A stretch of DNA of 24,000 nucleotides, taken from assembly GCF_900113015.1 (NCBI RefSeq), contig NZ_FONV01000011.1, positions 374,034-398,033 of the forward strand. The letters run 5' to 3'. Position numbers and translations under genes: made by a program. A model generated the notes under the pieces. It had not been told where the DNA came from. It saw nothing but the letters and a program-made list of their open reading frames with translations, and made no database searches. Every line of letters begins with the position of its first letter. Positions within the stretch are counted from its first letter, which is position 1. The DNA is from Actinoplanes philippinensis. GTDB lineage: Bacteria > Actinomycetota > Actinomycetes > Mycobacteriales > Micromonosporaceae. Shown here in pieces: positions 21,129-22,839 of the stretch.

Positions 21129-21539
21129 ATGCCTATAGACAACGAGCCTGTGTACCGGAGCTCGGTAGACAACTACGATCTCACCGACATCGATGGGATC
21201 GAGGCCGACATCGCCGCGATGGAGGAGTTCGCCGCCGGGCTGAAGGCCGACCTCGAACAGAACTACATGCCCCACGCCGACCTCGTCGCCGAGAAGATGC
21301 TCGCCGAGCCACTCAGAGCGGGCGAGTTCTACGAGTTCGACCAGTTCTTGTTCACCCACACGCAGGTCCAGGACGCGACCTTCCTCAACGTGGACAACTA
21401 CGTCATCGGGACCTATCAGTTCGCCACCTCTGCCGAACAGATCAGTGCCAAGTATCGCGGCTCCGACGCATTCTCCCGCGCCAAGCTCTCGGACGTCGAT
21501 GCCGCCTTCCGGACGACTGGAGGCCCGAGTGGCTCTTGA
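21129..21539 (+). CDS. Hypothetical acidic helical protein (136 aa); possible ESX/T7SS-associated small substrate or chaperone
   Basis: Third-codon positions are predominantly G/C in this frame, and a G-rich stretch lies 7 nt upstream of the ATG. No signal peptide, TM helix or Trp. Contains the helical segment IDGIEADIAAMEEFAAGLKADLEQ and a YxxxD motif (YRGSD, nt 21453-21467) near the C-terminus. Family not recognised. Confidence 0.75.
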   Translation: MPIDNEPVYRSSVDNYDLTDIDGIEADIAAMEEFAAGLKADLEQNYMPHADLVAEKMLAEPLRAGEFYEFDQFLFTHTQVQDATFLNVDNYVIGTYQFATSAEQISAKYRGSDAFSRAKLSDVDAAFRTTGGPSGS

Positions 21540-21582
21540 CTCGGGGGGTGGCGCCGGAGACCGCCCGGAAAGATTCACCTAC

Positions 21583-22839
21583 ATGCAGGTCGACGCGATG
21601 TGGGCCATGCTGAGCTTCCATGACAACGCTCCGCATTACCAGGCGCTTGAAGGCTGGAAGCGGTCCTACGAACTTGTTCTGATGCACCGGACGCAGGTCG
21701 AAAAGTACAAGGAAAAGCTGATCACAGCGTGGCCTCCGGAGCGAAACAAGGCGGCGCGCTCGTATGTCGAGCGCCTCGACCACCTCATCGACAGCCTCAC
21801 CGAGACTTATGAGGCGTCGATCACCAACTACACCGCGTACTCGAGCGCCCTGGCCGCCGTCGATGACATCAAGCGGAAGATGGACCTCATCCAGCAGGAA
21901 CATTCCGCAAACACGGCAGCACTCGCCGAGTACGACGAGGATTTGAAGACTCGGCCACGGGCCTTCAGCAAGGCCGGCGCTCCGCCTCCCCCGCCGTCGC
22001 CCGTCGCCGCAGGCCGGCAGGAGGAACTGCGCCTGCAGGCCGTGAGCCTCATGACCGGCTTGACCGCCGAACTAGCCACGGCCCAGACCTCCCTGGTTGC
22101 CCCTCGGCCATACGAACCTTTGCGCATTGTCAACGACAGTAGCGAATCGGTAGGAAACGGGGGAATAAGCCCGATCCTGCCAGGCACAGCTTCGTTCCCC
22201 GCGCGCGTCACGACATCGTCGCGGGCCTCGCGACCGAGGACTCCCATTACGGCACCTCAGAGAGATCTGACTCAGTCCCGACCGGCGCAACCCTCACCCA
22301 GTAAGACACCATCTGGAGGGCCCATCCTCGGCGGAACGAAGCAGCCACAGGCTCCTTCACCAAATCTTCCGTCATCGACACCAACTACATTCACTCCAAC
22401 TCCTAACTCCACCGATCCATTAAACTTCGCACCATCACAAAACCCTTCTCAATCGCCGATTTTCCCCCGCAGTCCGGCCACTAACAACACTGGGCTGGGG
22501 GCAGTTCCACCCGTCACCGGATCACGAGGAACCGCCTCGCCCCTCCATGGGGGCGTTATCGGTGGCACACCACCCATCGGGAGTTCGCCCTCCGGCCGCA
22601 GGGGCAACATGGGAGGCCTAACGCGAGGCGGGCAAAGGATTAATCCAATCGGCGGAATGATCGGACAAGAGGGCGCAGTCACACCCAGGCGAGGTGGAAG
22701 CTCTCGCAAAGAAGACGAAGCACGCTTCCTGAACTGGGATCCCGATAACCCGTGGGAAACCAACAGCGGCGTCGATCCAGTTCTGTCTCCACCTCCGGAG
22801 CAAAAGATCAACCCTGGGCCGACTATCGGTGGACGCTAA
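21583..22839 (+). CDS. Hypothetical protein (418 aa): ~130-aa helical N-domain followed by long Pro/Ser/Thr/Gly-rich disordered region and a W-containing C-terminal motif
   Basis: Part of ORF 21445..22839. ATG 21583 is the first start after the upstream stop, whereas ATG 21445 would overlap the upstream gene by 95 nt. The N-domain is MQVDAMWAMLSF...KLITAWPPERNKAARSYVERLDHLIDSL...; the middle is PPPPPSP and P/S/T-rich; the C-terminus is ARFLNWDPDNPWETNSGVDPVL. It contains a TTA codon at 22420-22422. Family not recognised. Confidence 0.75.
   Translation: MQVDAMWAMLSFHDNAPHYQALEGWKRSYELVLMHRTQVEKYKEKLITAWPPERNKAARSYVERLDHLIDSLTETYEASITNYTAYSSALAAVDDIKRKMDLIQQEHSANTAALAEYDEDLKTRPRAFSKAGAPPPPPSPVAAGRQEELRLQAVSLMTGLTAELATAQTSLVAPRPYEPLRIVNDSSESVGNGGISPILPGTASFPARVTTSSRASRPRTPITAPQRDLTQSRPAQPSPSKTPSGGPILGGTKQPQAPSPNLPSSTPTTFTPTPNSTDPLNFAPSQNPSQSPIFPRSPATNNTGLGAVPPVTGSRGTASPLHGGVIGGTPPIGSSPSGRRGNMGGLTRGGQRINPIGGMIGQEGAVTPRRGGSSRKEDEARFLNWDPDNPWETNSGVDPVLSPPPEQKINPGPTIGGR

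Follow-up and report, generated by a model that had tools for sequence, protein, structure and literature searches.

Do two proteins of no recognised family, encoded directly upstream of a mycosin-type protease, belong to type VII secretion? The question is raised by the window analysed here, a stretch of 24,000 nucleotides (nt) from Actinoplanes philippinensis (Micromonosporaceae; contig NZ_FONV01000011.1, positions 374,034 to 398,033 of the forward strand). In it, gene A (21129..21539, + strand), which encodes a small acidic protein, gene B (21529..22839, +), which encodes a larger one, and a gene for a serine protease of family S8 and mycosin type (22829..23980, +) follow one another. An earlier note, made from the sequence alone, had compared this arrangement with PE-PPE pairs and with EspB, substrates of type VII secretion systems (T7SSs). 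On balance, and with considerable reserve, we favour the reading that A and B form a PE/PPE-like type VII substrate heterodimer, expressed together with its cognate mycosin from one translationally coupled operon. We found no study of the A-B-mycosin unit in the literature, where the sole mention is the listing of a mini-cluster in Micromonospora lupini; the unit is uncharacterised, although databases have auto-named some of its members.

A translationally coupled three-gene unit

The unit was surveyed in 78 species loci (L020-L097) from Actinoplanes, Paractinoplanes, Micromonospora, Plantactinospora, Krasilnikovia, Spirilliplanes, Pseudosporangium and Nucisporomicrobium. All 78 contain A, B and the mycosin, with A directly 5' of B throughout, and the order A-B-mycosin on one strand has a single exception, a locus whose protease was detected 5' of A only. 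The start of B overlaps the stop of A by 1-14 nt at 72 of 74 loci, and the mycosin (MycP) start lies between -4 and +5 nt from the stop of B at 67 of 69. The entire unit is present as a tandem copy at three of the 78 loci. Two complete units each were found in A. utahensis and A. derwentensis, and in A. derwentensis a truncated S8 fragment lies between the two. The three-gene architecture is also conserved in a distant metagenomic actinomycete (L100, 9582-12546), where the corresponding products are proteins of 140 and 486 amino acids (aa) and a mycosin that scores 280 bits against the mycosin model TIGR03921. The small protein of that lineage has no recognisable sequence similarity to A, and its unit stands in an unrelated neighbourhood (HTH_31/DUF397 regulators and CrgA) with normal GC content.

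Two of the unit's three start codons call for comment. B had been read in the earlier note as a protein of 418 aa, which corresponds to the alternative start at ATG 21583. A start at GTG 21529, giving 436 aa, is most likely on sequence grounds, because homologues keep the Gly-rich N-terminal residues (GGG…T.W) and because of the overlap with the A stop seen across the loci, which in the window amounts to 11 nt. In this longer form B is 100% identical to the A. philippinensis protein Aph02nite_54360 (436 aa). For the mycosin, public annotation has the start at ATG 22886 and so loses the signal peptide; with GTG 22829, which overlaps the B stop, or with GTG 22841, a typical signal peptide ending in ARA/DQ is restored.

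Two helical proteins and a mycosin

The PE-like small partner, A, is an acidic helix-turn-helix protein of 136 aa with a net charge of -15. Its highest Kyte-Doolittle score in a 19-residue window is only 0.54, from which we conclude that A has no signal peptide or membrane segment, and the AlphaFold2 monomer model (predicted local distance difference test score, pLDDT, 72) contains helices at residues 21-57 and 68-109; the description of A as acidic, helical and devoid of a signal peptide was therefore accurate. The gene has a third-position GC content (GC3) of 0.82, typical of coding sequence here. Searches returned 61 homologues and no match in Pfam, NCBIfam, PADLOC or PHROGs.

The YRGSD motif that had been pointed out near the C-terminus of A, a match to YxxxD, occupies Y109-D113 (21453..21467, +); it lies where helix 2 ends, at a distance of 27 residues from the C-terminus. 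Across 62 sequences of the A family Y109 is invariant, G111 and D113 are at least 90% conserved, and the consensus extends to Y-R-G-S-D-A-F. A second YxxxD, YDLTD, is present at residues 16-20, and because of it a bare YxxxD match in A is not above chance, as had been allowed for. It is conservation together with position, helix 2 ending exactly at residue 109, that makes YRGSD meaningful and takes the motif well beyond chance. A therefore presents a helix-turn-helix followed by YxxxD/E and is encoded directly 5' of a large partner.

That partner, the PPE-like protein B, likewise has no signal peptide or membrane segment, and the window protein is without a match in Pfam, NCBIfam, PADLOC or PHROGs. 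An AlphaFold2 model of residues 1-214 (pLDDT 84.8; predicted template modelling score, pTM, 0.72) places helices at residues 21-29, 34-67, 74-141 and 163-188, and the predicted N-terminal helical domain spans residues 13-188 (21565..22092, +). The stretch WPPERNKAARSY, residues 50-61 in the 418-aa reading and 68-79 in the 436-aa reading, opens with a W68-P-P-E71 turn (21730..21741, +), which the model sets in a loop at 68-73 (W-P-P-E-R-N) between predicted helices 34-67 and 74-141, the position of the WxG turn. Among 111 B homologues W68 and P70 never vary, and P69 is kept in at least 90%. The earlier note had rightly seen a W-P-P-E stretch between two helices at this position. Its comparison of WPPE with the PPE signature PPEINSARMY was mistaken: the two are out of register, the true PPE motif is N-terminal, and the likeness is a coincidence of letters. 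No PPE motif is found near residues 7-10 of B, where the N-terminus is Gly-rich (consensus GGGxxGxTxW), and the sole PPE tripeptide lies at residues 69-71.

When the B N-domain model was compared by Foldseek with 350,542 chains of the Protein Data Bank (PDB), the six top matches were all PPE proteins (PPE41 four times, PPE15 and PPE4), with probabilities of 0.98-1.00, and the next ranks were taken by BAR-type bundles and a Borrelia protein. The model thus has the fold of a PPE N-domain, in which a helical bundle carries a W turn between helices 2 and 3; the statistics are modest. The structure of EspB was absent among the top 50 fold matches of the domain.

Beyond the helical domain, B continues into a P/S/T/G-rich low-complexity tail (22096..22734, +); residues 201-436 consist of 17% P, 12% S, 10% T and 14% G. 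The earlier note had allotted about 280 aa to this disordered tail. Its composition is as described, whereas its length is nearer 200 aa, with the confident helix 163-188 preceding it. Within the tail, conservation among B homologues picks out three islands, GPILGG (22318-22335, +), GGVIGG (22549-22566, +) and NPIGGMIG (22642-22665, +), each invariant or nearly so (38-111 homologues) in surroundings that cannot be aligned.

The protein ends in a conserved C-terminal module (22735..22836, +) made up of WDPDNPWET, GVDPV and, at the C-terminus itself, NPGPTIGGR. Invariant residues in 38 sequences are W403, D404, P408, W409, G414, P417 and P429-G430-P431, so the impression of a conserved C-terminal motif gained from the window alone was sound. 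A phmmer search with the last 50 aa of B against 1.84 billion representative proteins gave 93 matches. In 92 of them the motif forms the very C-terminus of the protein, which has 400-540 aa or is a fragment, and the last is a garbled call that fuses a B tail to a mycosin. The matches inspected all carry the AWPPE N-domain, and a scan of 596 Gb of species genomes with the motif pattern gave 394 matches, 323 of them in relatives of B. We considered and rejected the possibility that the motif is a module shared with other protein families, since every match inspected has the B N-domain. A polymorphic toxin was also rejected: the C-terminus is the most conserved part of B, and there is no toxin or immunity gene.

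The protease matches TIGR03921 with 281.0 bits (cutoff 278.75) over profile positions 1-350 of 353 and Pfam Peptidase_S8 with an E-value (E) of 3e-49, which bears out the recognition of an adjacent mycosin, and it is 100% identical to the NCBI entry 'type VII secretion-associated serine protease mycosin [Actinoplanes philippinensis]'. Its sequence predicts a signal peptide cleaved near ARA/DQ (nt 22907-22924, +) and a C-terminal membrane anchor (23891-23956, +). The catalytic residues are D63, H97 and S250, together with N187. None of these four varies in any of 70 orthologues, which all have the N-terminal hydrophobic segment as well, and 65 of the 70 have the C-terminal anchor. Pfam finds the S8 domain alone, with no I9 propeptide, and a P/S/T-rich linker leads from this domain to the anchor. 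Signal peptide, triad without I9 propeptide, Pro-rich linker and anchor together make up the architecture of a mycosin, and by all these marks the protease is a catalytically intact one with a predicted exported topology. The 120 mycosin homologues listed are mostly of the type encoded in this three-gene cassette; two that were checked lay in a cassette array, and no ESX-cluster paralogue from the same genome was found among those listed.

A hypervariable island among housekeeping genes

Two assemblies bear the name A. philippinensis, and their comparison shows how fast the unit changes. The flanks share 94.6-97.9% DNA identity, and AccE, Maf and AccA3 share 98.5-99.5% protein identity, whereas over window positions ~20475-24054 (8947-12526 of L001, compared with L002) amino acid identity is 52% for A, 45% for B and 64% for the mycosin. 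The three-gene unit is a hypervariable island. Between species whose AccA3 proteins are at least 95% identical, identity is 55-84% for B, with a median of 63, and 60-81% for the mycosin, with a median of 70. From pairwise matrices, old paralogue types can be made out in Actinoplanes: the window A and B group with copy 1 of A. derwentensis, the window B also with A. italicus, and the B of the other A. philippinensis strain with A. hulinensis, A. capillaceus and copy 2 of A. utahensis. Mycosin identity is flat across these types, at 52-62%, and does not follow the type structure of A and B.

Apparent relics of further copies were found in both assemblies. Upstream of the unit in the second A. 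philippinensis assembly (L002, 2314-2862), an annotated 182-aa chimeric open reading frame (ORF) resembles a window-type B N-domain at residues 6-73 and a mycosin C-terminus with its anchor at residues 57-161; judged by these similarities, it looks like the deletion scar of a lost cassette copy. In the window, tblastn matches of eight cassette mycosins mark a putative mycosin relic (20535..20825, +) in the ~800-bp 'intergenic' gap 3' of accE. The longest of these matches cover mycosin residues ~59-169 at 25-29% identity (best E 1.7e-5), and the translation is heavily degraded; with low confidence, we regard this segment as probably the decayed remnant of an earlier cassette mycosin. Given these relics and the grouping of paralogues, the within-species contrast is best explained by tandem duplication and differential loss, acting on a high substitution rate.

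The two fast-changing genes are also unusual in composition. Median GC3 is 0.70 for B and 0.64 for the mycosin, against 0.92-0.95 for A, AccA3 and PccB, and the mycosin falls below AccA3 in 68 of 68 comparable loci. Of the 78 loci, 32 have a TTA codon in B and 40 have one in the mycosin gene; for flank genes the figure is 1-6 loci. More generally, B and the mycosin are enriched in the rare A/T-ending codons TTA, CTA and ATA; the window mycosin has 8 CTA and 8 ATA codons, housekeeping genes none. Recent horizontal transfer was rejected as the cause of low GC, since low GC3 is found in essentially all 78 loci and rare-codon enrichment, being family-wide, is not a mark of recent transfer. Either fast evolution or codon-based regulation may be the cause. 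The fast joint divergence of B and the protease may point to an extracellular interaction under diversifying pressure.

Directly 5' of A, a leader of ~95 nt (21031..21128, +) has 76-85% nucleotide identity to eight Actinoplanes loci, unlike the spacer at 20476-21030, which does not align among the eight. It may be a regulatory leader and presumably carries the promoter of the operon, the 5' untranslated region and the ribosome-binding site. Rfam and promoter/terminator scans of 20000-24000 gave nothing useful, with neither an Rfam family nor a sigma-70-like promoter found in the leader.

The surroundings of this island are conserved. The unit is located between accE (at ~20128-20331 in the window) and maf, which is found 3' of it in 75 of the 78 loci; in the window the protease is followed by maf and then accA3, and the neighbours across loci are accE, maf, accA3, pccB and a Ser/Thr kinase. 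The remainder of the window is housekeeping: glpX, a rhomboid protease, a trypsin-like protease, PhoH-PIN, trehalose phosphatase, UPP synthase, PEPCK, a sigma factor, BirA, pccB, an M50 peptidase and the Ser/Thr kinase. This kinase, next to the unit (16913-20029, -; 1038 aa), has a very long Pro/Ala-rich linker with 'AAAAQTG'-type tandem repeats at ~17930-18110, a membrane segment and a C-terminal extracellular region, and a homologue was detected in 77 of the 78 loci. Elsewhere in the window, the ORF at 10106-10870 (+) combines sigma-70 regions 2 and 4 with a following anti-sigma zf-HC2 zinc finger, and represents one fused sigma/anti-sigma protein unless the ORF call has merged two genes.

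Possible type VII substrates, alternatives and known systems

We favour a T7SS heterodimer because A and B are without Sec signals yet are coupled to an exported, membrane-anchored protease, because B has a PPE-type fold with an invariant W turn and A the helix-turn-helix-YxxxD arrangement, and because Micromonosporaceae carry ESX-4-type machines at other places in their genomes. Helix-turn-helix-YxxxD is described as the general T7SS signal in the summary of Daleke et al. 2012 that PMC11217815 provides. Two ESX-4 clusters are known in Salinispora tropica (PMC4791881). M. lupini has ESX-4-type clusters and a separate esxB-esxA-mycP mini-cluster whose gene order is that of the unit (PMC4182475); this mini-cluster, MiLup08_40380-40382, is probably an A-B-mycosin unit.

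A series of results weighs against this reading. At E<=1, neither of the Pfam families PE (PF00934) and PPE (PF00823) matches any of the 62 members of the A family, nor B or any of 38 B-family members. The PE motif near residues 8-9 is absent from A, although some homologues, the window protein not among them, have 'PE' at residues 3-4. The turn of B reads W-P-P rather than W-x-G. Reference alignments were built for hhalign from annotated plasmid-borne ESX loci together with PE25 and PPE41, each identical in sequence to a PDB entry (10 PE, 13 PPE and 10 WXG100 sequences). Against these, B reached E 0.096 with PPE and A reached E 0.13 with PE, neither of them significant, and the comparisons with WXG100 were not significant either. 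The test has little power in helical families, given that PE itself reaches just E 0.0025 against WXG100; in the B-PPE alignment, non-significant as it is, W68 of B is paired with the Trp of the PPE WxG turn. Searches of the PDB with A and B, by sequence and by profile, gave chance coiled-coil matches only, and a tblastn search of plasmids with B matched nothing. The Foldseek matches of B to PPE chains are modest (E 8e-3 to 9e-2, TM-score 0.40-0.67), and those of the A model are non-specific: PE25 ranks 39th (TM-score 0.60, root-mean-square deviation 3.6 Å), and ranks 4 and 11 go, as weak matches, to LapA3 and LapA4, targeting factors of T7SSb.

The protease and the genomic setting add to these objections. 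The window protease is only just above the mycosin cutoff, other cassette mycosins score 249-285 bits (285, 280, 276, 270 and 249), so that the family straddles the cutoff, and in pairwise comparison the protease is nearer to subtilisins of the classical kind, with 138 bits, than to MycP1, with 105. A mycosin in an ESX cluster would have eccB, eccC and eccD alongside, and none of the 78 loci has an EccC homologue within 10 kb; precomputed Pfam lists for the annotated neighbourhoods examined contain no Ecc or EspG family. In the distant metagenomic lineage FDEVD, with F in place of Y, aligns with YRGSD, in an alignment that is itself non-significant.

The PE-PPE logic proposed in the earlier note consequently stands in part. 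The PPE fold matches, the conserved motif positions and the coupling to a mycosin speak for it, while Pfam, and hhalign against the PE, PPE and WXG100 alignments, showed no profile similarity to PE, PPE or EspB. The one signal at sequence level is a weak match to Pfam WXG100_2 (PF25547), given by 6 of the 38 B homologues with a best E of 4e-4 and by neither window protein. Helical folds are predicted and a mycosin is always adjacent, yet profile similarity and a nearby EccC are missing, so that the proposal is not fully refuted on any count. Judged on sequence, A and B fail the defining tests of PE and PPE, do not clearly pass that of WXG100 and should be assigned to none of these families. 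They share the architecture of these families and probably their mode of export, and may have been elaborated independently from a WXG100 pair or else be a very old relative.

If A and B are such a pair, A and the first two long helices of B would pack in the cytoplasm as a four-helix bundle, by analogy with PE-PPE, EsxB-EsxA and Lap-LXG. The YxxxD of A would then lie beside the W-P-P turn of B as a bipartite signal, which could be recognised by the ATPase EccC of an ESX-4-type machine whose genes lie at another place in the genome. Once B is exported, its tail and C-terminal module would be outside the membrane, where the co-encoded mycosin might cleave the tail or dock with it; by analogy with EspB and MycP1, the G-G-φ-I-G-G islands are candidate mycosin sites. 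The paralogue types, tandem copies and relics in Actinoplanes point to fast birth-and-death evolution of the unit as a whole, in which copies arise in tandem, decay, and old paralogue types are retained differentially. A more far-reaching version, which we regard as doubtful, is that a self-contained substrate pair with a private mycosin plugs into a distant ESX-4 machine and represents the first PE/PPE-type class outside Mycolata. B would be displayed or released at the hyphal surface and meet phages, competitors or kin there, so that the unit would undergo birth-and-death evolution under diversifying selection, and the mycosin would cut the four conserved G-G-φ-I-G-G islands and so free the WDPDNPWET…PGPxIG module.

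The protease need not act on B, even if the unit is related to type VII secretion. It could serve as an alternative structural cap in an ESX-4 complex, as MycP5 caps EccB5, with A and B as an Esx-like pair secreted through, or gating, a variant complex and with a non-proteolytic role for the tail. MycP has been reviewed as a trimeric periplasmic cap loosely tied to substrate cleavage (PMC11217815), M. lupini has two or three ecc sets and four mycP genes (PMC4182475), and the flat identity of mycosins across paralogue types, unlike that of A and B, also speaks for a cap. We nevertheless think this unlikely, given the invariance of the catalytic Asp, His, Asn and Ser in all 70 cassette mycosins and a protease that duplicates and decays along with A and B and diverges as fast as B, which suggests specific pairing. 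Another reading dispenses with type VII secretion altogether and makes A and B cytoplasmic coiled-coil scaffolds or regulators, the S8 protein an ordinary Sec-exported, anchored subtilase and the operon a matter of co-regulation. The missing ecc genes near the 78 loci, the lack of a significant PE, PPE or WXG100 profile match, the higher pairwise score of the protease with subtilisins, the commonness of helical hairpins as a fold and the non-specific fold search with A would all fit. Such an account does not sit well with PPE chains as the top fold matches of B, with invariant motifs exactly at T7SS signal positions or with a full-length TIGR03921 match that includes the anchor and has no I9 propeptide. 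Nor does it sit well with three translationally coupled genes that duplicate as one, or with a B tail of secreted-protein composition that ends in a conserved extreme C-terminus, and we give it little credence.

At the other extreme, A and B could be true PE and PPE proteins, sharing common descent with the mycobacterial families, in which case the origin of PE/PPE would predate Mycolata. PPE chains are the nearest solved fold to B, UniRef auto-names some homologues 'PPE family protein' or 'PE domain-containing protein', and hhalign, in its non-significant alignment, superimposes the two W residues. Set against this are Pfam models that match no member of either family, the lack of an N-terminal PE or PPE motif and of a nearby EspG gene, and a published model in which pe/ppe genes originated and joined ESX clusters on plasmids within Mycolata (PMC4791881). 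Independent elaboration of a WXG100 pair fits the data equally well, and we consider common descent very unlikely.

Should the substrate-heterodimer reading be true, a PE/PPE-like pair would be present family-wide in antibiotic-producing monoderm actinomycetes, always tied to its own active mycosin. To our knowledge, small EsxA/EsxB pairs are the only type VII substrates on record for actinobacteria other than mycobacteria and relatives of these. The unit would offer a simple, genetically separable system in which to study the action of a mycosin on a substrate, and a YxxxD and W-turn signal that operates without a mycomembrane or EspG. The fast divergence of B and the protease beside near-identical housekeeping genes, the sorting of paralogues between strains of a single species and the persistently low GC3 suggest an arms-race or recognition function.

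Among known systems, the LXG-Lap pairs of T7SSb (TelA-LapA3-LapA4, PDB 8GMH) resemble the unit in having a long helical N-domain of ~190 aa, which in their case needs small helical partners encoded upstream for its export. They belong to Bacillota, whose T7SSb has no mycosin, and LXG proteins end in polymorphic toxins accompanied by immunity genes, in contrast to the conserved C-terminus of B. EspB and MycP1 of ESX-1 provide an analogy in a helical bundle with WxG and YxxxD and a Pro-rich C-terminal region cleaved by a mycosin. EspB is a single fused PE-PPE-like chain that oligomerises, whereas A and B are two genes in different frames. EsxB-EsxA pairs of ESX-4-type systems in non-mycolate actinobacteria, so far the sole T7SS substrates reported for Micromonosporales (PMC4791881), are heterodimeric hairpins with the signal on one partner and the W turn on the other, as is proposed for A and B. 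Compared with these WXG100 proteins of ~100 aa, A has 136 aa, and B, with 436 aa, has extra helices and a tail of ~200-250 aa; the turn is W-P-P with no W-x-G, and PF06013 matches neither protein.

PE-PPE pairs (PE25-PPE41, PDB 2G38/4KXR; PE8-PPE15; PE5-PPE4) differ from A and B in their Pfam matches, their N-terminal motifs and the sequence of the turn. A is ~40 aa longer than a PE domain, no EspG gene accompanies the unit, and the host is a monoderm without a mycomembrane. A and B also lie outside ecc clusters, always with their own mycosin, and B has a conserved module at its extreme C-terminus. In other respects the two arrangements agree: in both, a small helix-turn-helix gene lies directly 5' of the larger one, YxxxD/E follows immediately after helix 2 of the small partner, and the ~190-aa N-domain of the large partner forms a bundle of helices whose hairpin turn contains a W. 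Both also combine a variable low-complexity C-terminal extension on the large partner with fast evolution and duplication.

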